The notes: generated from the sequence alone by a model not told the origin. Numbered from the stretch's first letter, positions 1 through 16,700 are shown. The stretch: DNA of 50,775 nucleotides from Clostridia bacterium (GCA_017452545.1 JAFTME010000003.1:1-50775), one strand, 5' to 3'. Numbers and translations are program-made.

Positions 1-267
1 GATTTCACCTATTATCCTGCCATTATATCAAAATTTCAATTTTTCGGTATGCCGAAGGATCTCATGATTCAATCATGGATGATCACATTTGACAACCAAG
101 GCGAAATTTACCATATACAACTGTACAGTAAATATAACATACAAGAAGGAAGCACGGTGGTCAACAGTTTGAAGCAAACAACAGACAAGAAAATCGTTTG
201 GCCCGAGGAATTGGTCGGTGGTGGCACGGGTATCGGTGGAGTATATCGAATCGTTCCATTAGAATAA
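1..267 (+). CDS. 3' part of a gene running in from the left edge; probable paralog of the lipoprotein at 2872-3786
   Basis: Frame 1 is open from base 1 (DFTYYPAII...) to the stop at 267. C-terminal motifs FDNQGEIYHI and VWPEELVGG resemble INSNGDVHLI and VWPTELRDG of 2872-3786. Confidence 0.65.
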   Translation, partial: DFTYYPAIISKFQFFGMPKDLMIQSWMITFDNQGEIYHIQLYSKYNIQEGSTVVNSLKQTTDKKIVWPEELVGGGTGIGGVYRIVPLE

Positions 268-299
268 ACCACTCAAAAAAATTCAGGAGGATTTTCATT

Positions 300-1172
300 A
301 TGTTCTATACTATTTACAAAAACACATTTAAGACCTTATTCCGCTCCGTTATTTTCTATCTTGCGCTTGCCTTACTGATCGGCGTTGCCATTTACGAGGC
401 AATAGGCGGCGCGTATGGCTATTATGATATGGAGCTGAAGGAACTAATTATGGATACCGACCCGCGGTTTGTTTTGACCAAAGACAACTATATGCAAAAT
501 CCCAATAATGCCTGTTGCGCAAATATGATGATGTACGCCATGCCCCTGTTTGCCGTCATTTCCGCCGTGCTGGTGTTACATAGCAATTATAATGATCGTT
601 TTTACGAAATCGAAAAAGCAGGTAACGTCAAGTCTGTGACCTACTTCATGGCGCGTATTTTGGCGCTGATCACCATCAACGCTGTGCTGATTGCCTTTAC
701 CAGCCTGCTCACGCACTATTGGTACGTCTTCTCCCGCGGCGGCGTGAACGGCATGGGAACCATGGAAATGCTACTGGATTCCGTCGGCCGCGTGTTGCGC
801 TATGCCGTGTTCCTCGCCATTCCTTCCCTGACCTTCTATATAACCTTTACCTACGCCATCGGTAGCATTTTCAAGAGTGGCTGGGTCGGCGCCATCGCCG
901 GTATGGGACACGTCGTTGCCTACTTCATGGGATATCTTATGCTGCGCTTGCAGGTGGGTGAAATTGGAAAATTATATTTTGAATACCTTTGCCCGATTCC
1001 TACTAAGCTGCGAAGCTATCTTTATGCCTTTGATACCGCTGATGTTGCTGCACACATGGAACGAAGCGAAACCTCGCTTGGTAAAGCCGCGGCCTGCGTT
1101 GGTGTGCTGTTGGGTGTGTCGGTTATTTACAGCACGGTCAGCTACCTTTGCCAGCGCAAGCGCATTCAGTAA
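300..1172 (+). CDS. ABC-2 type transporter permease
   Basis: AGGAGG RBS before ATG 300; about 6 hydrophobic segments; in an operon with an ABC ATPase. Confidence 0.75.
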   Translation: MFYTIYKNTFKTLFRSVIFYLALALLIGVAIYEAIGGAYGYYDMELKELIMDTDPRFVLTKDNYMQNPNNACCANMMMYAMPLFAVISAVLVLHSNYNDRFYEIEKAGNVKSVTYFMARILALITINAVLIAFTSLLTHYWYVFSRGGVNGMGTMEMLLDSVGRVLRYAVFLAIPSLTFYITFTYAIGSIFKSGWVGAIAGMGHVVAYFMGYLMLRLQVGEIGKLYFEYLCPIPTKLRSYLYAFDTADVAAHMERSETSLGKAAACVGVLLGVSVIYSTVSYLCQRKRIQ

Positions 1173-1181
1173 GCAAGAGGA

Positions 1182-1928
1182 GTGAATCGAATGTTATTGC
1201 TTCGTACTTATAAAAAGTATTGGTGGGTTGTGGCGTTGCTTCTCCCCGTCTTTGCCATTTTGACGCGCGTTTGGGAGCCATCGTCGCTCATTATGCCCTA
1301 TCCAAGGAACGGCTATCTTGCCTACTTAGAGTTGTTTTTACCTATGCTGTTATTGGTTCCCCTCTCGATGATGCTGTTTGATCGCTACGAGATTGAGCTG
1401 GCGCTGGTGTGTGGCGTGTCCACTATCAAGCTGATGCTTCAACGTGTGCTGGCGCTCGCCAGCTACGCCTACGGTGTCCTTGCTCTGTTCGTGCTCATCT
1501 TTCGCTACACCCCCTATGTCCCCGATCCGAATGCAAAGCTGATCTTTCCCATCGTCATCCCCGAGAGGTATCGGTGGTATATGCTGCTCTCTCTTGCTGT
1601 TACGCTATTGTTCTTCACCGCGCTGTTTCTGTTCTTCCGCGTGGTAACGCGCAACTGCTATCTGCCCGTGGGGCTTGGGTTGTTCGTCTTTCTATTCTTC
1701 AAGGAGCGATCGCAAGACATTCAAACGGCAGCGCTGGGCACGAAGCACGCCCTGTTTGACCCCTTTATATCCTGCTATTTTCTGGGGAACAGCGTTCCAG
1801 CATCACTCTCCCTTCCCCACCTTTGGACGCTCAACCGCTTGCTCTTCTTGGATCTTGGGCTGCTTCTCTTGGTGGTAAGCTGCCTGCTGCTTCGCCGTGA
1901 AAAGCTACATGAGGGCTTTGGCGAATAA
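1182..1928 (+). CDS. Second ABC transporter permease-like membrane protein
   Basis: GTG start just after GAGGA; multiple TM segments; lies between permease and ATPase. Confidence 0.7.
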   Translation: MNRMLLLRTYKKYWWVVALLLPVFAILTRVWEPSSLIMPYPRNGYLAYLELFLPMLLLVPLSMMLFDRYEIELALVCGVSTIKLMLQRVLALASYAYGVLALFVLIFRYTPYVPDPNAKLIFPIVIPERYRWYMLLSLAVTLLFFTALFLFFRVVTRNCYLPVGLGLFVFLFFKERSQDIQTAALGTKHALFDPFISCYFLGNSVPASLSLPHLWTLNRLLFLDLGLLLLVVSCLLLRREKLHEGFGE

Positions 1929-1964
1929 TAAATCAAAACAACTATAAAATTATGGAGGAATATC

Positions 1965-2843
1965 ATGAATATCGAAATTAAGAATTTGACGAAGGTTTAT
2001 CCGCTTGGAAAAAAGAAGGCGCTGGATGGCGTAAATATCACCATCGGCAAGGGCATTTTCGGTCTGATCGGCAGAAACGGTGCCGGCAAAACCACCCTGA
2101 TGCGCATTTTAGCGACCATTATGCAAGCAACCGAGGGAGAAATTTACTTTGACGGTAAGGAACTGAATGCCAATAAAGAAGCCTTCCGCACCTCACTTGG
2201 CTATCTACCGCAAAGCACCAAGCTGATGCCTGCCTTGAATATCGTAGAGTTTTTGGACTACGTTTGCATCATGAAGGGCATCAAGGACAAAAACGAGCGC
2301 CGTGAACGCATCACTGCTGCCATTGAGACGGTCGGACTTGTTGGCGAGGAAAAGAAGCTACTGCGCGCCTATTCGGGCGGTATGCTGCGCCGTGCGGGCA
2401 TTGCACAGGTGCTGATTGGGGATCCGCAGGTGCTGATCATCGACGAGCCGACAACCGGTCTTGACCCGGAGGAACGCCTGTATTTCCTCAATCTGCTCTC
2501 CAAGATCGCCCGCGATCGCACCATCATTTTCTCCACACACATCACCGCCGACATCGAGCATCTGTGCCAGGACATCTGCGTGCTGGAGAAGGGACAAGTC
2601 AAATATCTCGGTAAAAAAGGCGAATTCATTTCGCGCATCGAGGGCAAGCTGTGGGAGCATAACGGTACCCCCGAGGACGAAGAACTGCTTCGCACGGAAA
2701 GCGTAGTCACCTCGGTGGCATACGTAGACGGTGCACCGTGTGTACGCTACGTATCCGACGCGCCCATTCTCCTTGGTAGCACCGCTATCACCGCGACACT
2801 CGAAGATGCTTACATATACGCGTTGGGCGGTGTGAAGCGCTAA
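1965..2843 (+). CDS. ABC transporter ATP-binding protein (DrrA/BcrA-like exporter)
   Basis: Walker A GRNGAGKT, signature YSGGM, Walker B LIIDEPT, H-loop STH. Confidence 0.95.
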   Translation: MNIEIKNLTKVYPLGKKKALDGVNITIGKGIFGLIGRNGAGKTTLMRILATIMQATEGEIYFDGKELNANKEAFRTSLGYLPQSTKLMPALNIVEFLDYVCIMKGIKDKNERRERITAAIETVGLVGEEKKLLRAYSGGMLRRAGIAQVLIGDPQVLIIDEPTTGLDPEERLYFLNLLSKIARDRTIIFSTHITADIEHLCQDICVLEKGQVKYLGKKGEFISRIEGKLWEHNGTPEDEELLRTESVVTSVAYVDGAPCVRYVSDAPILLGSTAITATLEDAYIYALGGVKR

Positions 2844-2871
2844 AATAACAATTGAAATAAGGAGAAACACC

Positions 2872-3786
2872 ATGAAAAAATTACTTATCCTGTTACTCGC
2901 TCTCGCCCTTGTTTTGACCGCCCTTGTTGGGTGTGCCAAACCCAACACGCCAAACGAACCGGGGAGCCCCAACACCGACACACCCCCTACCCCGCCCATC
3001 ACGGACGAGGACTATGACGAGATTATCGGCGGCGACAACTCCGGCAATCCCGGCGAAACGAATCCGCCCGAGGACAATCCTCCTGTGGACAATCCGCCTA
3101 CAACAGAAACACCCGAAGGTAGCCAGGTGGCAAGCGGATTTTTGGCTAAACAAAAGAAGTACAACTACGGCGAGAACAATATCGTTATGCTTAACGTAAC
3201 CAACCAAAACGAAGAAAATTACTCGGTTAAAGTAGAGGGCTATTATCTGGATGCTGACGGCAAAGTTTTGAAGACAGAAACCAAATTTGTCGAGGGTTAT
3301 GCAGCAGGGTACGTCAAGGACTTCCTCTTTAACCCCGGCATTGCGTTTGACAGCTTCAAGTTCACGCTGACAGCAGAAAAGTTTAGCGGAGAATGCTATG
3401 AGGATGATTTTTATATGAAGGATGTAGTCCTTCGGCAAGGAACCGCACACGGCTTTACACCGGAAGAACTAGCCGCAGGATTTGAAGTCACAAAACAATA
3501 TCCCTGCCTTTGGCTGGATGGCTCATGGGGATATTCCGGCACTACCTATCCTGCCTATTTTGATAGGACTTATATTATCATCAATTCCAACGGTGACGTT
3601 CATCTCATATTGGATCATAACAATTTCAACAGCATCCTAGGATATAGAATACCACGGCCTAATGCCGTCAATTCGACCATTTGGAGTTTATATCTGTCTT
3701 TTTCAGAAGAAGATGTATGGCCAACGGAATTGCGCGATGGCTACCAAATACTTTTTGCATTTACAGCTTCTGAGACTGAAGAATAG
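2872..3786 (+). CDS. Lipoprotein with Pro/Asn/Thr-rich linker, FxLYD-like Ig domain and divergent C-terminal domain
   Basis: MKK plus hydrophobic stretch plus LVGC lipobox; low-complexity linker; YYLDADG motif; RBS AAGGAG. Confidence 0.8.
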   Translation: MKKLLILLLALALVLTALVGCAKPNTPNEPGSPNTDTPPTPPITDEDYDEIIGGDNSGNPGETNPPEDNPPVDNPPTTETPEGSQVASGFLAKQKKYNYGENNIVMLNVTNQNEENYSVKVEGYYLDADGKVLKTETKFVEGYAAGYVKDFLFNPGIAFDSFKFTLTAEKFSGECYEDDFYMKDVVLRQGTAHGFTPEELAAGFEVTKQYPCLWLDGSWGYSGTTYPAYFDRTYIIINSNGDVHLILDHNNFNSILGYRIPRPNAVNSTIWSLYLSFSEEDVWPTELRDGYQILFAFTASETEE

Positions 3787-3837
3787 AAATTAGCTTGTAG
3801 AAGTATTGAATGAATTTTTGAAGTGATATGGCAAGCA

Positions 3838-3883
3838 AAAAAGGCCTCTGTATAACTGAAATGGGTTATACAGAGGTCTTTTT
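3838..3883 (+). terminator. Rho-independent terminator of the ABC/lipoprotein operon
   Basis: AAAAAGGCCTCTGTATAAC-8 nt-GTTATACAGAGGTCTTTTT. Confidence 0.8.
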
Positions 3884-3942
3884 ATATGCTTCAATTGACA
3901 ATATCCGCAGACGCACCATAAAGACCTACTGTTATCTATGAG

Positions 3943-3996
3943 TTTGTCAATTCAATTTGATCATTTTTTTCAAAATGATCAAATTGAATTGACAAA
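3943..3996. repeat. Perfect 25-bp inverted repeat with 4-nt loop
   Basis: TTTGTCAATTCAATTTGATCATTTT-TTTC-AAAATGATCAAATTGAATTGACAAA. Confidence 0.9.
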
Positions 3997-4217
3997 TGAA
4001 AATTATCCGAGCGTGAGGATGAGATAGAGTTACATAAAAAATGCAGCCCCGCTCAACATCGGTTGACATTGAACGGGACTGGATTTTTTGTGCACAGCGA
4101 GAGGTTGATTTGGTAAAGAAGATCAGCATATTCTTGCATTTTTGTTGTTTGTTGTTCTTATATGATAGCAGGGTGGCAAATTTTGAACATTTTTTCGAAG
4201 TGCGAAAAATCCTTATT

Positions 4218-4679
4218 TTACAAGGGTTTTCGTCGATTTTTTGATAAAGGTTGTACTTGTGTGATTGCAGCATCTGCCGCGAGGTCCTCGTTGAGGTCGG
4301 CGATGGGATCGCCCTTAACGGCGATATATTTCATATCGTTGGGCACGCCGGAGGCAGCAACGGGATAGACACCGGTGGTATGATCGACGAAATAGGCAGC
4401 AAAGGGGGTGCCGACGATCTGCTCCTCGCGCAGATTGCGGGTCAGCTGATGGATGATGGCGGCAACCATCTCAAGGTGCCCGAGCTCTTCGCTGCCGACG
4501 TCAGTCAAAAGACCAACGACGTCGCCGTGCGGCATGGAATAGCGCTGGTGCAGATAGCGCATAGAGGCGCTGAGCTCGCCATCGGGGCCACCGACTTGAC
4601 TGATGATGGCGCTTGCCAGCGCGGGATTGGGATTTTTAATCTTTACGGGATATTGCAGCTTCTTCTCATACGTCCACAT
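4218..4679 (-). pseudogene. cotJC: cotJC (Mn-catalase-family spore coat protein), 5' portion only, interrupted after codon 135
   Basis: MWTYEKKLQYPV, GGPDGEL, EELGHLE and GDPIADLNEDLAA are typical of CotJC. The expected EQKAR...RE..H C-terminal part is replaced by 18 unrelated residues. Confidence 0.9.
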
Positions 4680-4694
4680 GGATATTCACTCCTT

Positions 4695-5153
4695 TCAAAG
4701 TTGACCCTTGTCGTTTCCGACAAAGTCGAGCTGCCAGGGCCAGGGGCTTGCAGTCCAATCCCAGCGCTCGCTGCTTTGGTTTCCAATGGCGCGGACGGGG
4801 GCGCACAGCGCTTCATACTGCTCGATCACCTGCGCGCGCTCGCAGCGCAAGCGATGGAAATGATCAAGTGCACGGCTGCAATCGGGGTAAACGTCCAAAT
4901 ACAGAACGATTTCATTGATGGCAAAATCGAGCGTCTGCAGGCGGCGCATCAGCTGGCGGCACTGCTCGGTATTGGCGGGAGAATTGCCACAGCCGCAGCC
5001 ACCTCCGTTGTTCCCTGCCTCGCCCCTTGCGTGGATACGGTTGGAGCAGCCGCCCGTCTGTGACGCGGTACCGCAGCCGCAACCGGTACGGCGAGGGGGA
5101 TCCTGCTCCCGGCGGCGATTGCCAAAGATGCCGTTGGTATTACAATTATTCAC
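4695..5153 (-). CDS. cotJB: Spore coat protein CotJB with Gly/Cys-rich N-terminal extension
   Basis: GTG start at 5153 after AAAGGAGG; LDFAINEIVLYLDVYP and WDWTASPWPWQ motifs; directly upstream of cotJC. Confidence 0.9.
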   Translation of the reverse strand: MNNCNTNGIFGNRRREQDPPRRTGCGCGTASQTGGCSNRIHARGEAGNNGGGCGCGNSPANTEQCRQLMRRLQTLDFAINEIVLYLDVYPDCSRALDHFHRLRCERAQVIEQYEALCAPVRAIGNQSSERWDWTASPWPWQLDFVGNDKGQL

Positions 5154-5502
5154 AGAACTTACCCTCCTTTCCGCCGTAGAACGGCAAATCCAGCGCGCGG
5201 AACAGTGTACCGCGGCGCAGGGCGGTCTCCTCGTCGTACAGGTCATCATACTGCTGCAGCGGCATATACAGGGCGGCAAGAATACCGCCGCGAATGCCGA
5301 AGCCCTCATGCGCGTCGTCCGTATACGACTGCTTTTGCATCGGGCAGCTTGCGCCGACCGTCACCGCTGCGGGGACGTCGCCGCCGTGCTCGCAGCAGCC
5401 GCAATTTCCGCGGTCGGCAGGCAGACGCGGTGCGCCGAGAAGATGACGCAGCAGCTCGTCGTCCACACGCTCCTGCGGCGTCAGATCCTGATTCAAATTC
5501 AA
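5146..5502 (-). CDS. cotJA: Spore coat associated protein CotJA
   Basis: Likely TTG start at 5502 after AAGGAGG; C-terminal LAALYMPLQQYDDLY...ALRRGTLFRALDLPF motif; overlaps the cotJB start. Confidence 0.85.
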   Translation of the reverse strand: MNLNQDLTPQERVDDELLRHLLGAPRLPADRGNCGCCEHGGDVPAAVTVGASCPMQKQSYTDDAHEGFGIRGGILAALYMPLQQYDDLYDEETALRRGTLFRALDLPFYGGKEGKFCE

Positions 5503-5555
5503 AATGTGTTCCTCCTTCCAAGGCACCGCCGGGTCTGTGCGCGGCGCCTCACTAC

Positions 5556-5583
5556 AATATATGCGGAAGGGCGAAAAATGTCA
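5556..5583 (-). promoter_or_regulatory. Putative mother-cell sigma-E/sigma-K promoter of cotJABC
   Basis: Minus strand reads TGACA-15 nt-CATATATT; CATAnnnT is the sigma-E/K -10 consensus. Confidence 0.55.
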
Positions 5584-5649
5584 AACGCTGCGATTGTTTG
5601 TCGTTGTTCGTCGGGGCAAAAAAATTTCCCACTTTTTTTCAAAAAGGGG

Positions 5650-5678
5650 TTGACATTTCAAATAATATGTTGTATAAT
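5650..5678 (+). promoter_or_regulatory. Consensus sigma-A promoter of tRNA-Arg
   Basis: TTGACA-17 nt-TATAAT. Confidence 0.9.
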
Positions 5679-5702: not shown

Positions 5703-5779
5703 GCGGTGTTAGCTCAGCTGGATAGAGTGTTTGGCTACGAACCAAAAGGTCGGGGGTTCGAATCCCTTACACCGTACCA
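5703..5779 (+). tRNA. tRNA-Arg (anticodon ACG)
   Basis: Acceptor stem GCGGTGT/ACACCGT, D-arm AGCTCAGCTGGATAGAG, anticodon arm TTTGG-CTACGAA-CCAAA, GGTTCGAATC T-loop, encoded CCA. Confidence 0.97.
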
Positions 5780-5956: not shown

Positions 5957-6010
5957 GAAAACAAGAAATCACAAGAGCCCTCGCGCTCTTGGGCAAAGGA
6001 AGAATGCAAC

Positions 6011-7048
6011 ATGAACAAGGAATTTTTATTTGATCTGCTGCGGACGGGCTCCGTTTCCGGAAACGAGGCAGAGCTGGAAAAAAAGATCTACGATTATATG
6101 CAGGACAAGGCGGATGCGGTGTCGGTTGACGAGCTGGGCAACGTGACCGCGGCGCTCAATCCGACGGCAACATTCAAGGTGCTGGCAACCGGCCATGCAG
6201 ACGAGATCGGTCTTATGGTCAGCGCAATCGGCAGCGACGGCACACTGATGGTAACCGAGATCGGCGGCATCTATCCCACGACGTATCCCGGGCACAAGGT
6301 ACGCATCTACACCAAAAACGGTGTGATTTTCGGTGCAGTGGCAAACTCCAGAGAGATCGCCAAGAATAAGGAGCCGGAGGCGTCCTCGCTTCGGATCGAC
6401 ATTGGCGCGAAGGATCGCGAGGATGCGCAAAAATACGTGGAGCTCGGCGACACGGTAACCTTTGACACGGACGTTCGGGAGCTGCTCAACGATTGCATTT
6501 CCGGCAGAGCGCTGGACGATCGGATCGGAGCGTTTATTGTCATGGAGGCGTTGGCGAAGGCAAAGGCGCAGGGGGCTTCGGTCGGCTGCTACGCCGTCGC
6601 AACGACCGGTGAGGAAACGACAGGAAACGGTGCGTATTTCTCCGCCTCCCGTATCAAGCCGAGCATCGCGATTGCCGTTGACGTGACGTATACCTCAGAT
6701 AACTGCGGCATCAGTGAGGCGGAAACCGGAGATATTTCCGTTGGCAAGGGGCCCGTTCTTTGCAACAACCCGTCCATTCACAAAAAGGTTAACGAGCAGC
6801 TGCGCGCGTGCGCTCGCAAGCTGGGGCTGGCGGTTCAGACCGAGGCTGCCAGTGGCAGGACCGGAACCGACGGTGACATCATGCACAAGACAGGACTTGG
6901 TGTTCCCTTCGCGCTGGTATCCATTCCTCTCCGTTACATGCACAATCCCGCCGAGGTGGGATCGCTGAAGGATATCCGGGATTGCATTGATCTTCTTGCG
7001 GAATTTTTCGTAAGCTGCACGGAACATATGAATCTGAAGCCGTTCTGA
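6011..7048 (+). CDS. M42 family metallo-aminopeptidase
   Basis: GHADEIG, RALDDRIG, GEET, AVDVT, GTDGD and IPLRYMH motifs; ATG 6011 after AAGGA. Confidence 0.92.
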   Translation: MNKEFLFDLLRTGSVSGNEAELEKKIYDYMQDKADAVSVDELGNVTAALNPTATFKVLATGHADEIGLMVSAIGSDGTLMVTEIGGIYPTTYPGHKVRIYTKNGVIFGAVANSREIAKNKEPEASSLRIDIGAKDREDAQKYVELGDTVTFDTDVRELLNDCISGRALDDRIGAFIVMEALAKAKAQGASVGCYAVATTGEETTGNGAYFSASRIKPSIAIAVDVTYTSDNCGISEAETGDISVGKGPVLCNNPSIHKKVNEQLRACARKLGLAVQTEAASGRTGTDGDIMHKTGLGVPFALVSIPLRYMHNPAEVGSLKDIRDCIDLLAEFFVSCTEHMNLKPF

Positions 7049-7053
7049 ATTTG

Positions 7054-7095
7054 AAGCAAAACGGAGCCGACGCTCATGCGTCGGCTCCTTGCTTT
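7054..7095. terminator. Bidirectional terminator between convergent genes
   Basis: GGAGCCGACGC-TCAT-GCGTCGGCTCC with A/T-rich flanks. Confidence 0.8.
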
Positions 7096-7097
7096 GA

Positions 7098-10000
7098 TCA
7101 GATCACGCGTTTGAAATAGTGGAGATAGAGGCGCTTGCCTGCAGGCAGGCGCTTTTTCTTTTGCGTGATCAGCGTCAGATAGAATTGTGCGAGATCTGCC
7201 ATGGCATCGGCGGGCATGCCGTAGCCGAATTCCTCGGCGGCGACTGCCTCCAGAATATCTCCGATGCAGGTCTTACTGACGACCTCCTTATCCCCCGTGG
7301 CGCCGTCGGCGTATTCCATCGGATAGCCGAAGGTGTCCTCGTAGGCAAAGGAAATGCGCTTTGCATAAGCCTCGCGCAGCTCTCCCTTTTCGGGTGCGGT
7401 GCCGTACAGGGCGAGCAGCTCCAGCGTCTGGCGAATCAGCTTGGCTGCGACCTCGGCGCGGTGCTCCTCGGTATCGAACACGTGCTCCGCGCGGGCGATG
7501 GTATCCTTGGCAAGCTGCTCTCGTGCCTCTTGCGCGCGTTTTGCCTTGCGCAGGAAGCGAACGATCAGCACGATAACGGTGATCAGCACCAGCAGGACAG
7601 CAAGTGTCAGCAGAATGCCCTTGATCAGCGCTTCCCAGTTGAAGGGGATCTCCTCTCCGTTGCCGCCGGGAATATCCACGGGCGGTACGGGAGGCAGGAT
7701 CGACGGATCGTCATCCGGCTTTTCGGGCGTATCATCGGGCGTGGTGATCACAGGGCCCATGATCTCTGCCGAGGTGGATTTTTTGCCGTACAGATCGACG
7801 TAATAGGCGGGGGTGGTTTCATAGACGATCCAGCCGATGCCGTCGTACCAAACCTCGATCCAGGCGTGCTTATCGTTATCCTGGACGTCGCCGACGAAGC
7901 GACCAAGGTCATCGTCCGCATAGACGCGGCGAGTATATTCGTTACAGATATAGCCCTCAACGTAGCGCACGGGAATATCCAGCTCACGCAGCAGCAGGGC
8001 GGCGGCAGAGGCAAACTGCACGCAGTAGCCCTCCCTCGTTACGGTCAGGAAATTCTCCACACCGCAAAGCGTGGGATCGCCCTCCTTGGTGATGGTCAGC
8101 GTATAGGTACAATCGTCCACGAGGCGATTGATCACCGCCATGGTCAACAGATGGCGCTGTTCATAAGCCGATGCCTCAAGTGCATCACGGGTTGCAGCCT
8201 CGGAGAGCTGATAAGGCTGCGCACCCGGCAGCAGCTCGCCGCGCACGCGCTTGCCGGTCTCCTCGTCGATATACGAGTCGGCAAAGCAATCGTCGGGGTA
8301 ACTGCCGGTCAGGATCTCCTGCGCCAGCGCGCGGATGATCTCACTGTCGGCCTTGGAGGTATAGGTATTGTAAACAAAATCGCTATAAGCATTTGCTTCC
8401 TCAAGGAAGCGATCGATCATGGCACGGTAGACCTTATCGCCGTCCTCGACGTAGTGCTTGGCGATGCTCTCCCCGTTCGGATCGAACGTACCGGTATAGC
8501 TGCTCTTGAATGCGCGCTTATTCTTGAAGGAATTGTAGCGAGCGATCTCCTTTTCAGAGTTATTATACGCGGCGATCAGCGCAGCGACGTTGTGATACCA
8601 CTCTTCGTCCAGCTGCATGGGCGCGTAGACCAGCGCGGAATAATCGGCGCGCTGCTCGTCAAATTGTGAGCCTACCATAACGCCGTCGAAGAAATTGGCG
8701 TAGGGCAGCAGGTGCTTATTCAGCGATCGATATTCCAGCACGCCGTGCGCTTCGCTTGTGACGCGCGGGAGATACAGCTCCGCTCCTATCGAGCGCAGGC
8801 GCAGCACATTCGCCACGTATGCGACAAAGCCGTATTCCTCGTAGCTGTAATACTTTTCGTAAAGATCCTCCTCGACGATTTCTGCGGGCATGAACAGCTT
8901 GCAGAAGCGCTCGAAGGTTAGCTCACTCGGCATATCCTGCACGTCGTAGAGATCGCGCCACTGTGCGAGATGGTCGTCGTTTGCGGTATGCCATGCGCCG
9001 TCGATATAATCGACACCCAGCCAGCCCTGCATATACAGGTTATTATCAAACTGGGAGTAGATGCGCATCAGGTTCAGGTTTTGGAAGACCTGCGTTTCGG
9101 CGGTCGTGTCGTGCGGCTCAAAGTTTTGCTCCTCCTCGCCATAGGCGTACATCTCCATGACAGGATCGTCGCCACGCAGCACGGCAGTCACATATTCGCG
9201 GTAATAGTTCATGCGGCGGTCAATGCTCTCGATGGTATTGAAGGCGCCCTGCACGGTTACCGTCGGGAAAAACAGAAGGATGAACGACAGCAGCAGCATG
9301 GCAAAGCCGGCAAAGCCACCCATGGCAAGGCGGGCATCGGCGCCGATCCTGTCATACTTACGAACGGCAGCCAGCTGCGCGCGTTCGCGCTTACGCTCTT
9401 CCTCTTCAGGAGAGAGCGCGGGCTGCTTTTGGGAGCGACGGTTGGAGGAAAGATCGAGATAATCGTTCAGCTCGTCCTCAACCGTAACAAGTCCCGTAGC
9501 CCGGCGTTCGCGGCGACGCTCGCGGCGCTCGGCACGCGATTCCTTTTCCTGCTCCCGCTGCTCTGCCTGCGCGCGCAAGCGCTCCGGCACCTCGGGACGG
9601 TCGTCGACGAACAACGCGTGCTTCTCACGCACCAGTGCGTTGTTTTTCTTATCGTACAGGCACTGATAAGCGTACATGATCAGAATTGCCGCAAAGCCGG
9701 CGATCACGGACGTGACCGCCCAGTTGGAAACGGGGATATTAAAGGTAAAGATGGACATCAGCGTTGCCACCGAAACGATCAGCGGAACGACGATGCGGAT
9801 GCGGCGGATGAGGAAGGGCACGAACAGCAGCGCAAACAGCCAGCAAAGCGCTACGACGCCATCCGCAAGCAGCTCCTCCTGCTCAAATTCGGTGATCGGC
9901 AGCTTGATCACGCGGCTGATATAGCTGTAATAGCCCAAGCTGTACAGGCGCCGCATGATGGCGTTATACACCACCGTGACCACGTGGTCGATATAGGTCA

Positions 10001-12132: not shown

Positions 12133-13095
12133 TTACTTGCCGAGATACGGAACCTCCACCGAGCGGAAGATCTCATCCAGGATGCTATCGACCGACAGGT
12201 GGTTGAGCTTTGCCTCCTGCGTCAGGATCACGCGGTGTGCGACGGCAGTACGGTACAGCGCGGCAATATCGTCGGGCAGCACGTAATCGCGGCCGCGAAG
12301 GAAGGCATACGCCTGCGACAGGCGCATGAGTGCGACAGATGCACGGGGGCTGGCGCCAAGCGACAGCGACTTATGGCGTCTGGTTGCGGAGATCAGCGAG
12401 ACGATATAGGTATAGAGCGACTCCTCGACCTTGACCTCTGCCACCTTTTTCTTGGCCTCCATGATATCTTCGGCGCAAAGCATCTGGCTCGCGGTATCCA
12501 TGGGGTTCTGTCCGCGGCGAGCGCGCAGGATCTCGACCTCCTCCTGGGGGGAGGGATAGCCCATATTCAGCTTGAAGGCAAAGCGGTCCAGCTGCGCCTC
12601 GGGCAGCGGATAAGTACCGACATAGCCTGTGGGGTTCTGGGTTGCGATGACCATAAAGGGCTCGGGCATGGGATAGGTCACGCCATCAACAGTAACCTTA
12701 TTTTCCTCCATTGCCTCCAGCAGCGCAGACTGCGTCTTGGGTGAGGCACGGTTGATCTCGTCGGCCAGCAGCAAATTGCACATAACCAGACCCGAGCGGA
12801 ACTCGAAGCTCTCCTTCTGACGGTTATAAATATTAAAGCCGGTAATGTCGGATGCCATGATGTCAGGGGTAAACTGGGCGCGGTTGAACTGCATACCCAT
12901 AACGCGGGACATGGTGGCTGCAAGCGAGGTCTTTCCCGTTCCGGGGACGTCCTCGATCAGCACATGAGAGCCGGACAGCATTGCCGTCATCAAAAGGATC
13001 ATTTCGCGGTGCTTGCCGACGATGACCTTTTCCATCTCTGCAATGGCATCAAGAATTTTCTGCTGTTCCGTGGGGGTAGTCTTTACTTCATCCAT
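12133..13095 (-). CDS. MoxR family AAA+ ATPase
   Basis: EDVPGTGKT, QFTPD, LLADEINRASPKTQSALLEAM, ATQNP, LPEAQLDRF, GASPR; ATG 13095 after AAGGAGG. Confidence 0.96.
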   Translation of the reverse strand: MDEVKTTPTEQQKILDAIAEMEKVIVGKHREMILLMTAMLSGSHVLIEDVPGTGKTSLAATMSRVMGMQFNRAQFTPDIMASDITGFNIYNRQKESFEFRSGLVMCNLLLADEINRASPKTQSALLEAMEENKVTVDGVTYPMPEPFMVIATQNPTGYVGTYPLPEAQLDRFAFKLNMGYPSPQEEVEILRARRGQNPMDTASQMLCAEDIMEAKKKVAEVKVEESLYTYIVSLISATRRHKSLSLGASPRASVALMRLSQAYAFLRGRDYVLPDDIAALYRTAVAHRVILTQEAKLNHLSVDSILDEIFRSVEVPYLGK

Positions 13096-13308
13096 GAATA
13101 TAGCCTCCTTACGCATGGTTCGGGTAATAAAATACGACCGAAGCGGCAGCGCTGCTGCCCACTGCGCATTATAATACGTACATTATATCATATTTTTCGC
13201 ATATACGCGCACCCTTTGTGTGAAATTTACAAAAAAGATAAATTTAGTATCTGTTGAACAAAAGCAAAGCACCCAAATTGTACATAATGACAACGCTGCG
13301 ACGCAATA

Positions 13309-13685
13309 AACAACCACCCGCCAAGCGGGTGGTTGTTCACATGCGGGCATAGCCCTCCATTCTTCGCTATGCGTAAACGCATCTATACGAACTGCCAATT
13401 GCGTGGGAGTACTTACCAAGCCTCCCTCCGGGAGGGAGGTGGCACGCGACAGCGTGACGGAAGGAGCCTGCGTGACTGTAACAATGCACCTGTTCTATCC
13501 CAAGTGCCAAATCTGCAGTTGCGCACTCTCCTCCACCGCCTACGGCGGAGCCCCCTCTCGGAGGGAGCCTTTTAGTTACTCTCTTCACATCAATTCTTTC
13601 GTTTTTATTTCCTTTCTCAGGTACATTTCCCCCCGCATGATTCAACTATATAATTCTTACCGAACCACGCGTCTAACGCGTGGTT
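13309..13685. mobile_element. Possible non-autonomous hairpin-ended (IS200/IS605-like) remnant
   Basis: Related perfect hairpins AACAACCACCCGC-CAA-GCGGGTGGTTGTT (13309-13337) and AACCACGCGT-CTA-ACGCGTGGTT (13663-13685); no transposase between them. Confidence 0.35.
13418..13572. repeat. Inverted REP-like doublet
   Basis: AAGCCTCCCTCCGGGAGGGAGG.. on + and AAAGGCTCCCTCCGAGAGGGGG.. on -, each followed by a second small hairpin. Confidence 0.7.
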
Positions 13686-13694
13686 TTACTATAC

Positions 13695-13727
13695 AAAAAG
13701 GAACCCCTTTTTTCAAAGGGGTTCCTT
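13695..13727 (-). terminator. Terminator of the LRR surface protein gene
   Basis: AAGGAACCCCTTT / AAAGGGGTTCCTT stem, T run on the minus strand, 13 nt after the stop. Confidence 0.8.
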
Positions 13728-13740
13728 CGTTGATTTTTAA

Positions 13741-16700
13741 TTATCCGATCGGCTTCTTCTTGAGGTACAGGAAGTAGAACGCTGCGCCGCCGCCTGCAAG
13801 CACTGCAAGGAGCAGTACTACAGCTGCGATGGTTCTGCCGGTCTTATTCTTGGGCTGCTCGTCGGAGCCGCCGGGGGTCTGATCGCCGCCGGAGGGATTC
13901 TGCTCGTCCTCGCCGCCGGGGGTTCCGGGACCGGGGTTGACGGGCGTGTCGTCGCCGGAGCTCTTGGGCTGCATGGTGACCTCGAGGGTCTTATCTGCGA
14001 TACCCATGGTGCCCTTAACGACCTGTCCGCCGGAGGTGTAGCTCTCCAGATCGGGGATCTGAATCTCGTAAGCGGAGCCCGCCTGAACATCCTGCGTGTA
14101 GGTGCCGAGGATCGCGCCGTTGACGTCAACATAGTTGATAGTCAGCTTATAGAAGGCACGCGTGTAGACGACCTGAACGATGGTATCCTCTACCACGCTG
14201 TCAACACGGATGTTGGTCTGCTCGGTGGTATAGCCCTCGATTGCGGGAACGGGATAGTCAACGGAAGCGCCGTACTTTGCGGTAACGGAAGCGTCCTTGA
14301 TCATCTTGTAGCCTTCGGAGTCAACCTCAACGAACTGGAAGGTGACGCGATAATCTCTGAGCTTATAGACGACGTTGACCTCAGTCTCGCCTGCGTAGGA
14401 GTTGATAACAACGGTTGCGCGGTTGGGCGACATACCGGTAACCTCGGGAGAATCCACGGAAACCTTTTCACCGAAATAGGTTTCGATGACGGCATCCTGT
14501 GCTACGCGGTAGCCATCCTCATCAACGTAGTGGATGGTCAGCGTGTAGGGTGCCTTCTTATAGGTGATGATCAGCTCCTGATCCGCCTTGATGGACTGGA
14601 TCTGGTAGGTGGGCTGGATGGGCTTATAGTGCTCAACGGCGGGAGCGTCAATGGTGACCTTGGTCATATAGTCGCCCTTGACGATGACGTCGTCGCCCAG
14701 CTTGTTGCCGTTTTCGTCCTGCAGCTTTACGGTAACGTCGAACTGCTTAACGGTATAAACGACGGTCACGATGCGGTCGCTGGTCATATTGAGAACAGAG
14801 ACCTTTTCCTGGTTGGGCGTGTAGCCCGTGATCTCGGGAGAGGTGATCTCCATGCCCTTACCAAATTCAATGCGCTGCGTCTTGGTCTCTGCCAGCGTAT
14901 TGCCGTTGACATCCTGATACTTGATGGTCAGCGTATAGACGTTGGGAATATACTTGATGGTGATGGCCTGCGTACCCGTACCGGTCAGCGTGATCTCAAC
15001 GCTGGGAGCGCTGGGCGTGAAGTTGGGTACGATGGGAGAATCGACCACGATGGTCTCGCCGATGCTGCCGGTCAGGGTGACAGAGGGAGCAGCGGTCGTA
15101 CCGTCCATATACTGATAGTGAATGATCAGCTTGGTGCCGAGAACCAGCTTTGCGTTCTTGATCTCGGTGTCAGCATTGACAACCAGCGTCGTCCACTCCT
15201 TCTCGGTGCCGTTGAAGTAAGCGGTCGTGAGGGCGGAGCAGCCGTCAAAGATGCCGGTGGTCAGGGGCTTGAGCGTACCGTTGGTCAGGTCAACGCTCTT
15301 GAGTGCGGAACAGCCGGTAAAGCTGCCCTTGCCCAGCGTGACAACGGAGGACGGGATCATAATGGTCTCAAGCGAGGTACAATTCTGGAACGCGTGGATA
15401 CCCGTAGAGGTCAGGCCCTCATTCAGCGTCACCGATTTGAGCGACGTACAAGAGGTGAAGGCGTCATCGGGGATCTTGGTCAGCGTGCCGGGGATATCGA
15501 TGGACTCAAGGCTCGAGCAACCGTAGAATACGCGGCTGCCCATGCTCGTCAGGTCGTTCGAAAGCTCAACCGTCTTAAGGTTAGTGCAGAGCTCGAATGC
15601 AGCCTCGCCGATGCTCGTGATGCTATCAGCCATCTTAATGTGCTGAATGTTCTTATCCTTGGTCAGAAGGTTGCTGCCGATACCGGTAATGCCGTTGGCA
15701 AATACGATGGTGTGGATATAGGGCAGTTCTCTCTCCCATGCCGTCTTATCGGTGACGGGGCCGTAGCCGGACAGCGTCAGAACGCCGTTTGCACGGTCAA
15801 CGGACCAGGAGATGCCGTCCACAGTGGACTGACCGGATGCGTAGCGATAAACCAGTGCGTCGGTCAGCTCGGTGTTACCGGGCTCGCACGCGGGGAGATC
15901 GTACTCCCAGACGGCTTTAACGATAGAAGAGCAGCCGGAGAACGCCTTGAGCTTAACGGTCAGCGTAGAGGTGGACTTGATGACAACACCGGTCAGGGAG
16001 GAGCAATTGTAGAATGCTTCCTCGCCAATGGTGACGAGAGTAGAGGGGAGATCCAGGAACTTGAGTGCCTTGCAGCCGTAGAACGCCCAGTAGCCGATCG
16101 AGATCAGGCCCTCGGGCAGGGTGACGGACTCAAGAGAGGTACAGTTGCAGAAGGTATAATCGCTGATGGACGTGATTCCCTCGGGAATGACGATGGTCTT
16201 CAGAGAGGTACAGTCGCGGAATGCGCTGGTACCGATCGCTTTGAGCGTATTGGGAAGGTTGATGTTTTCCAAAGAGGAGCATCCGCGGAAGGCATCGGCG
16301 CCGATGGACTCGATACCTGCATGCAGTTGAACGTTCTTCAGATCAACACAGTTCTGGAATGCGCCTGCCCCAATCGACTTGACGCTATTGGCGACGAACA
16401 CGTCAACAGCCTTGGTCATGCCACTGAAAGCGTTGGTACCGATGCGAGTAACGTCGGAGTAAACGGAAATACCCTTGACAACGGGAGCGTAAGAATACCA
16501 GGGTGTCAGCTCTGCGCGGTCATAATCGGGGATCGCGCCCGTACCCGTGATGCTCAGAGACTGCGTGTTTGCATCATAGGACCAGGTCAGCTTACCCTCG
16601 GTATTGGGAATGGTATTGGAAACGCTGGAGCCGGGCAGAGAGGGCGTAACGGGTGCGCTGGTGCGATAGGTCAGTACGCGCTCAAGGTAGGTGTTGCCCA

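Follow-up and report, generated by a model that had tools for sequence, protein, structure and literature searches.

Interruption of cotJC at a glutamate codon by serine recombinase elements of gut Clostridia, and their possible excision during sporulation

There is only a 5′ half of the gene cotJC in the 50,775-nucleotide stretch of Clostridia bacterium DNA analysed here (GCA_017452545.1 JAFTME010000003.1:1-50775, hereafter the window). The gene breaks off at positions 4273/4274, and this point is almost certainly an att junction of an element mobilized by a large serine recombinase (LSR). The same codon is interrupted in many other gut Clostridia, where a recombinase gene commonly lies next to a cotJC half. 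We lean, with some reserve, towards the view that the element leaves the chromosome during sporulation and thereby restores cotJC.

The insertion falls inside the coding sequence of cotJC within a cotJA-cotJB-cotJC operon, and the following features define the operon and the break.

5146..5526, minus strand: cotJA (Pfam CotJA, E 2.7e-13, over the cut-off)
4695..5153, minus strand: cotJB, with a GTG start at 5153 (Pfam CotJB, E 1e-23, over the cut-off)
4275..4679, minus strand: cotJC 5′ half, codons 1-135 (Pfam Mn_catalase match over residues 1-137)
4273..4274, minus strand: central GA dinucleotide, the inferred crossover, which provides bases 1 and 2 of the Glu136 codon
4249..4272, minus strand: putative element-derived half-site (attP arm) TGCTGCAATCACACAAGTACAACC, of an arm family found in genomes G004 and G625
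4218..4272, minus strand: read-through tail of 17 element-encoded codons and a stop, fused to the truncated CotJC
4149..4272, minus strand: conserved element end (blastn against G004 and G006; depth spike in metagenome run X1)
4202..4232, minus strand: imperfect hairpin (RNA fold; outer pairs kept in the element ends of group B)
4044..4081, minus strand: strong terminator-like hairpin of 17 pairs, 8 of them G-C, followed by the T-run CATTTTTTAT; it forms in the fold
3943..3996, no strand: perfect 25-nucleotide inverted repeat with a 4-nucleotide spacer, in the AT-rich DNA that separates the cargo genes from the element end

Here G000 denotes the window's own genome, G002 to G012 are other species representatives of its genus, and G625 is an Oscillospiraceae metagenome-assembled genome. 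An earlier, sequence-only reading of this DNA had described an otherwise intact operon in which cotJC departs from its family at a metal-ligand codon, and both points hold. The products of cotJA and cotJB pass their Pfam cut-offs, and the CotJC match stops at residue 136. The truncated open reading frame (ORF; 4218-4679, minus strand, 153 amino acids) matches Mn_catalase (PF05067) over residues 1-137 with an E value of 1.6e-36, covers profile positions 1-151 of 284, and ends before the equivalents of both Glu148 and His181 that a full ferritin-like domain would include. In a tblastn comparison with an intact CotJC from the same genus, identity is 87.5% over residues 1-136 and the match ends there. 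Codon 136 (4274-4272) is GAT in the window and GAG in all five intact genes of the genus, and unrelated residues follow it; tails resembling the 17-codon read-through are also present in G004 and G010. When CotJC is aligned to the Mn catalase 1JKU, E136 pairs with Glu148 and H169 with His181, which we take to be metal ligands. Without Glu136 and the RExxH histidine further downstream, the product of the truncated gene should be inactive. In its present state, cotJC in the window is a gene fragment.

Several other characteristics first noted from the sequence are indeed found around the break. The palindrome GCAG-CAT-CTGC is present at 4267-4277, the GC content drops to the left from 0.56-0.58 (4201-4800) to 0.35 (3601-4200), and an imperfect hairpin with arms CGAAAAATCCTT / AAGGGTTTTCG at 4202-4213 / 4222-4232, 41 bp inside the element, forms in an RNA fold. 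The five intact sites that were compared read ...GC(A/C)-GA-GCA(A/G)AAGG. At all eight junctions between a cotJC 5′ half and an element, ...GCA-GA is kept and element DNA follows, and at all six junctions between an element and a 3′ half the element finishes with ...CA-GA before GCA(A/G)AAGG resumes. A GA is therefore common to the intact sites and to both kinds of junction in all genomes compared. The element arms that flank it are imperfect inverted repeats (AGCAGCA / TGCTGCT in G004, for example). The window's arm, TGCTGCAATCAC..., groups with those of G004 and G625; in other elements, this family is found reverse-complemented in the arm next to the recombinase.

Only an end of about 125 bp is shared between elements of different species, and the cargo differs. 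By blastn, the window's element end is 85.5% identical to G004 over 4149-4300 and 72% identical to G006 over 4147-4300, and the element end beside the 5′ half in G625 closely resembles it. The outer CGAAAA/TTTTCG pairs of the 4202-4232 hairpin are kept in five element ends of group B. The terminator-like hairpin at 4044-4081, which lies in the reading direction of the cotJ genes, would keep cotJ transcripts from running into the element. The recurrence of the same GA at eight and six junctions, the inverted-repeat arms and the LSR gene found beside the 3′ half in relatives strongly support the att junction that had been proposed. The same position is broken in seven of the 13 species representatives of the genus, and a metagenome contig from another study spans the junction, which argues that the break did not arise by chance.

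The seven representatives broken at residue 136 are G000, G004, G006, G009, G010, G011 and G012. Five others (G002, G003, G005, G007 and G008) carry an intact cotJC encoding 199-202 amino acids, and the gene of the remaining one is cut by a contig end. A 3′ half beginning with EQKAR is located on another contig in five of the six other split genomes of the genus; with G625 included, six of the seven other split genomes examined hold this half, the exception being G011. In G009, G012 and G004, the 3′ half comes immediately after a recombinase gene that is read from the same strand and encodes 516-519 amino acids. Three of four recombinases scanned from relatives, that of G009 among them, have the domain series Resolvase, Recombinase, Zn_ribbon_recom and DUF4368, an architecture that we take to be shared with TndX. 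The recombinase adjacent to cotJC in G004 gave no DUF4368 match.

Two relatives reveal the element from end to end. In G625, both halves reside on the same strand of one 231-kb contig, 20.4 kb apart. The intervening segment carries a helix-turn-helix protein, an Mn-catalase paralogue, a type I restriction-modification system with a PIN protein, a DUF4143 ATPase, an oxidoreductase, a small ORF and the recombinase; no phage genes and no conjugation or mobilisation genes were seen between the halves. The halves of Roseburia faecis JCM 17581 sit 24.2 kb from each other in its complete chromosome, at 473,905-474,315 and 449,486-449,689, and the element is a conjugative transposon of the Tn916 type, with DUF961, FtsK_SpoIIIE, Rep_trans, ArdA, TcpE, AAA_10, NlpC/P60 and TcpC. 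A coupling protein of a type IV secretion system is carried by the element of G006. No recombinase relative with at least 60% identity is present among 50,697 phage records. The initial suggestion of a skin-like element must therefore be revised with regard to its nature, as these elements resemble conjugative transposons or islands and are not prophage remnants.

Some individual elements have additional features. An intact Mn-catalase-family paralogue of 220 amino acids (Pfam Mn_catalase, E 4e-56; about 35-37% identical to CotJC) is encoded as cargo upstream of the recombinase in three elements, at 4623-5285 of locus L036 (G625), 87-668 of L051 and 6-572 of L057. In the elements of G009 and G012, which we call group A, the segment between the cotJC halves includes a single-copy dapF, immediately ahead of the small ORF and the recombinase gene.

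L023 (G009:C116), 7075-7902: dapF
L026 (G012:C29), 1982-2803: dapF

Beyond dapF, the group-A contig holds ordinary-looking chromosomal genes for 25 kb, and no transfer genes are visible in the parts of these elements that are seen. The intervening segment of group A may be a domesticated one of very large size.

The cotJC gene of G004 is split into three, with a second break near residue 175 (QRFAE | ALRKVQ). The second insert is 6.6 kb long and ends in a different serine recombinase of 502 amino acids that is 22% identical to the first. A third recombinase, upstream on the same contig and 97% identical to that of G625, is not followed by a cotJC piece, which suggests tandem or nested elements.

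L025 (G004:C10), recombinase genes and cotJC parts: 306-1865, 5986-7545, 7599-7736, 12803-14311 and 14339-14431

A second insertion hot spot near residue 175 was considered and set aside; it is firm only in G004, and other short 3′ ends may be natural C-termini.

A scan with the recombinase alignment, using one genome per species, confirmed 563 relatives. The best 80, with 73-100% identity to the G625 protein, were kept. The recombinase gene abuts a cotJC half in 72 of these 80 loci. In 56 it is followed within 400 nucleotides, on the same strand, by the 3′ half, and in 16 by the 5′ half on the opposite strand. Among the rest, four have less than 300 nucleotides beyond the gene, and four have room and no cotJC piece. 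Elements of the opposite-strand class are turned around, yet the direction of the GA relative to cotJC is unchanged, as would be expected if polarity depends on the central dinucleotide alone.

These 80 relatives come from Oscillospiraceae, Lachnospiraceae, Blautia, Roseburia and others, many from animal guts. Both halves, and no intact copy, are present in four named genomes: R. faecis, Lacrimispora indolis SR3, Anaerotignum lactatifermentans DSM 14214 and Flintibacter muris DSM 110149. In a family-level sample, at least 18 of the 150 listed matches to the 3′ half fall in open frames shorter than 100 amino acids; among five of these that were examined, four are split genes and one has the 3′ half only.

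The sequence-only reading had proposed that joining the halves at the GA dinucleotide would restore the gene, and in silico this is the case for all five relatives tried, giving ORFs of 201-204 amino acids that contain E136 and RExxH and align end-to-end with intact CotJC; the window's own 3′ half is absent from its assembly. The ratio of nonsynonymous to synonymous substitution rates (dN/dS), computed with our own Nei-Gojobori script, is 0.01-0.11 between split 5′ halves versus 0.03-0.07 between intact genes, and 0.03-0.10 for the window's 5′ half against relatives. There is no stop in codons 137-176 of any of 57 3′ halves, and R-x-R-E-x-x-H is kept in all 56 that were read out in their loci. 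The 3′ halves have a median dN/dS of 0.147 and a maximum of 0.77 (86 pairs with dS of 0.15-1.5) versus 0.04-0.15 in four intact pairs. For the pair G009 and G012, dS and dN/dS are 0.356 and 0.079 in the recombinase, and 0.364 and 0.031 in the cotJC 5′ half. The matching dS values indicate that the element and its host diverged together, with cotJC remaining split and under constraint. This co-divergence, together with the constraint, favours the view that both halves have stayed in use.

Directly upstream of the recombinase gene, at least 58 of the best 80 loci have an ORF of 43-55 amino acids with the conserved core C-x-S-V-F-K...T-x-x-W-I-E-L-I. No family for it was found in Pfam, NCBIfam or the protein atlas. 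The block AATAGYGGACTTGCC...TTCATATAGTGTA is conserved upstream of this ORF, and divergent versions retain ATA, a spacing of 16-17 nucleotides and CATA(C/T). The pattern ATA-N15-18-CATAYRNT occurs in 41 of 59 distinct upstream regions, versus 0.0037 expected per 190 nucleotides in this genome, a count that measures conservation and not independent hits because the regions are related. Sigma-E promoters of C. difficile are described as having an ATA -35 element, a CATAT-type -10 element shared with sigma-K, and 16-18 nucleotides between them (PMC3789822), and the upstream pattern fits this description. In the two loci that were read, a TGnTAnAAT-type -10 element lies between the small ORF and the recombinase gene. 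A SpoIIID box in the promoter spacer was also considered. The commonest spacer block, GGACTTGC, misfits the C. difficile consensus KRTAACARK; a few variants resemble what we take to be the B. subtilis consensus, and the idea was dropped.

Structure prediction for the small protein together with the recombinase gave a score of 0.66, versus 0.00 for the best control. This mark is reached by 58 of 80 solved complexes and by two of 110 mismatched pairs, counts that hold only roughly here because our own alignments were used. The runs agree in at least 86% of contacts, the partner has a pLDDT of at least 63, and the predicted contacts involve recombinase residues 366-392 and 478-519. The predicted complex supports binding of the recombinase by the small protein.

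These observations suggest the following mechanism. A TndX-like LSR with Resolvase, Recombinase, Zn-ribbon and DUF4368 domains would have carried the element into cotJC by strand exchange at the GA of the Glu136 codon. The element's other end should hold the small ORF, the recombinase gene and the cotJC 3′ half, and we infer that the present genome has such a recombinase end as well. The family targets this one cotJC site across gut Clostridia with variable cargo, which is an ABC transporter in the window and, in other genomes, a type I restriction-modification island or a conjugation module of the Tn916 type. During sporulation, a mother-cell promoter of the sigma-E type might drive the small ORF, and perhaps by read-through the recombinase gene too. 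The small protein would be a candidate directionality factor that binds the C-terminus of the recombinase. The element could then leave at the GA, so that cotJC is whole and in frame again before expression of the cotJ operon begins, and the forespore would retain the integrated copy. The timing of excision, the cell type and the role of the small ORF are inferred. Selection on both halves, co-divergence of element and host, the sigma-E-like promoter in front of the small ORF and the predicted complex are the features that suggest excision coupled to sporulation.

The cotCB and cotD operons of C. difficile depend on sigma-K (PMC3789822), and by analogy with these C. difficile data cotJ-type operons are probably mother-cell genes. 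The block TTTGACATTTTTC...GCATAYATTGTA upstream of cotJA is kept in all 12 genus loci and fits AC-N16/17-CATA.

5556..5584, minus strand: promoter-like site of the cotJ operon (conserved block and sigma-70 scan)

In the window, the site fits the mother-cell type (AC, 16 nucleotides, CATATATT) and also the sigma-70 type (TTGACA-17-TATATT, with a scan score of 11/12). Just upstream of the operon, on the opposite strand, is a tRNA-Arg gene (ACG; 5703-5779, plus strand) with a promoter-like site at 5650-5678 that matches the sigma-70 consensus at 12 of 12 positions. Depth at this tRNA gene reaches 250-1170x in public metagenome runs because its sequence is common to many organisms. SpoIIID and Spo0A are both encoded in the window's genome. 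There is also an unusual tandem at G000:C144:7589-8726 (minus strand), where three matches to the Spo0A C-terminal domain fall within 1.2 kb, two of them in one frame of 245 amino acids.

The window coincides with contig C53 from its first base, and window base 1 is a contig end, so that the inserted DNA can be traced for 4.27 kb only. This part of the element contains the following features.

1..3900, plus strand: element cargo up to the contig end, GC content 0.35-0.56
1-267, plus strand: ORF open at its 5′ end (no NCBIfam match)
198-1172 and 1182-1928, plus strand: two membrane proteins (no NCBIfam match)
1965-2843, plus strand: ABC ATPase (Pfam ABC_tran, E 2.8e-30), the sole cargo ORF with a Pfam family
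2872-3786, plus strand: lipoprotein-like ORF (no NCBIfam match)
3838-3883, plus strand: terminator within the cargo stretch

No conjugation or mobilisation genes were seen in these 4.27 kb with Pfam or NCBIfam. About 1 kb of the membrane-protein genes (985-1976) matches G012:C9:173369-174363 with 92% identity, and G012 is the only one of 200 family genomes sampled that matches the cargo beyond the level of the ABC ATPase.

There are several observations that weigh against a sporulation-coupled switch. The source assembly (159 contigs, 90% complete) has only the 5′ half of cotJC, as the 3′ half was absent in both a Pfam search and a tblastn search with intact CotJC, and an orthologous recombinase was not found in it either. 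The element in the window may therefore be incomplete or lack a recombinase, its contig ending inside the element. A partial serine recombinase at the start of contig C6 was rejected as the element's own; it is 24% identical and is followed by unrelated sequence and no cotJC. The public metagenome data comprised four runs, all of them assembled contigs and not reads, in which a rare joined cotJC or a circle junction cannot appear. The promoter was assigned from motif matches among sequences that are themselves related, and selection on the halves could also be upheld if the element is often lost and gained again. In addition, a plain conjugative element of the Tn916 type is among the relatives. 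TndX is reportedly sufficient for both integration and excision, as the title of a paper by Wang and Mullany from 2000 has it (cited in PMC4430133), in which case neither a directionality factor nor developmental control is required. Finally, cotJC mutants of B. subtilis are said to have no apparent defect (PMC12122855), and a permanent knock-out could thus be tolerated.

Some of these points favour another possibility, which we regard as a serious contender with a lesser chance of being correct. The elements might be ordinary integrative, conjugative or mobilizable elements for which cotJC is a cheap and conserved landing site. Excision would then be sporadic and serve transfer, and cotJC would be off in carriers and restored only in lineages that lose the element. 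The full conjugation set in R. faecis and the coupling protein in G006 are as expected from such a lifestyle, and crossover at GA is characteristic of TndX-type recombinases (PMC4430133). The tolerance of cotJC loss described for B. subtilis (PMC12122855) and the patchy presence in the genus (7 of 13) point in the same direction. Likewise, a contig from run X4 matches window positions 4273-4928 and carries 26 further letters that depart from the window. There is thus also a form, either intact cotJC or another element, whose difference starts exactly at the crossover, and this fits a polymorphism for the element. However, a transient guest of this kind does not readily account for a recombinase that has diverged as the host gene has in G009 and G012 (dS 0.356 versus 0.364) while the split 5′ half remained under constraint (dN/dS 0.031), nor for 57 promoterless 3′ halves of which none is broken. 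The sigma-E-like promoter block is conserved in front of the small ORF across divergent elements, and group A, in its visible parts, has no transfer genes. Sporulation-coupled excision is retained as the somewhat better account.

It is quite unlikely that the window holds a dead remnant, in a species that no longer has the recombinase end or the 3′ half and in which cotJC is a permanent pseudogene. The absence of both from the assembly is compatible with such a loss, and leftward extension by a metagenome scan with the cargo permease gave one contig of 4,142 nucleotides, a gain of about 200 bases. However, the 5′ half in the window exhibits no relaxation, binned assemblies commonly miss mobile DNA, and all but one (G011) of the seven other split genomes examined hold the 3′ half.

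A fusion of one organism's cotJC to foreign element DNA through the conserved 125-bp end, by faulty assembly or binning, can be given almost no weight: contigs of run X1, the run that holds the window best, do break between 4193 and 4203 with several variant contigs and a depth of 46-51x versus about 10x, which indicates that the conserved end is repeated within that community and could give rise to chimeras, but a single 740-nucleotide contig of run X2, from another study, bridges 3804-4544 with 14 differences, and junctions of the same type are present in seven other genomes. The chimera at about 4270 that the sequence-only reading had allowed for is thus not borne out, and the junction in the window is taken as real. 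Some joints within cotJC (4301-4530 and others) have sides of only 22-29 nucleotides and were taken to come from other organisms.

For the window alone, the outcome is a well-supported junction whose other end is missing from the assembly. A bolder proposal, which we offer as speculation with the balance against it, is that one TndX-like lineage in gut Oscillospiraceae and Lachnospiraceae is tuned to a single cotJC codon and has its own directionality factor behind a sigma-E promoter, such that conjugative transposons and defence islands are switched out in every sporulating mother cell. If true, each event would rebuild a coat gene and at the same time free a circular, transfer-ready copy from a cell about to lyse, and horizontal transfer in the gut would be tied to sporulation. 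Skin-type switches have so far been studied in a few strains of Bacillus and Clostridium, and here the same logic might operate at one cotJC codon in a large share of gut Clostridia, cultured and uncultured, with cargo related to conjugation, defence or transport. If excision is coupled to sporulation, spore formation would regularly release elements in gut communities, and annotated split cotJC genes should not count as pseudogenes. The family is also a source of natural serine recombinases of high site specificity, together with a small protein that is their candidate partner. Cultured carriers exist, namely R. faecis JCM 17581, F. muris DSM 110149, L. indolis SR3 and A. lactatifermentans DSM 14214.

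Developmental excision from within a gene has several precedents. The fdxN element of Anabaena is excised by XisF from a gene in the terminally differentiated heterocyst. The cotJC recombinase matches NCBIfam recomb_XisF below threshold (E 8.9e-27; 94 bits versus a cut-off of 375 bits), and with a match so far under the cut-off it is, judging by sequence, not a member of that family; the phylum and the developmental programme are also different.

In Bacillus subtilis, excision of SPbeta from spsM by SprA and SprB during sporulation rebuilds a gene for the spore envelope (PMC4191935). Its recombinase is constitutive and its directionality factor is under the control of sporulation sigma factors (summarised in PMC5595907). 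Unlike the cotJC elements, whose recombinase has no relative at or above the 60% mark in the phage records, SPbeta is an active phage. The gene cotJC has already been named in print as a target, in a preprint on SPbeta relatives that cites Abe et al. 2013. Our literature search found nothing on which codon is hit, how widespread the insertion is in gut Clostridia, the conjugative or island cargo, the small ORF with its promoter, or the co-divergence, although the tables of Abe et al. 2013 may list cotJC cases.

The gin element in gerE of Bacillus cereus ATCC 10987 is a non-prophage island with restriction-modification cargo that is excised in sporulation by GirC and GirX (PMC5595907). The G625 element is similar in that it has a type I restriction-modification system and no phage genes. 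However, the target gene, the bacterial class and the recombinase are different, gin has three recombinase genes, and excision has been demonstrated for gin, whereas that of the cotJC elements is proposed.

Tn5397 is a conjugative transposon of the Tn916 type with the LSR TndX; the central GA is always present in its targets, and it strongly prefers one coding sequence (PMC4430133). The cotJC elements are like it in crossing over at GA, in their strict site preference and in the Tn916-type transfer module of R. faecis. Whereas the target of Tn5397 is a Fic-domain sequence, the cotJC elements hit a sporulation gene.

A parallel in regulatory layout is skinCd of Clostridioides difficile (sigK; CD1231, CD1234), which is likewise a serine recombinase element inside a mother-cell sporulation gene. 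Its recombinase is expressed from a sigma-A promoter, and a small directionality factor that is an orphan in the databases is expressed from a sigma-E promoter (PMC5025042). The cotJC elements would reproduce this arrangement with a sigma-E-like motif, an orphan ORF of 43-55 amino acids, a -10 element of the TGnTAnAAT type and the recombinase gene, in that order. They differ from skinCd, in that the target is cotJC and not sigK, the cargo is not phage-like and the recombinase is of the TndX-like type with DUF4368, and the proposed switch is known here from sequence alone.

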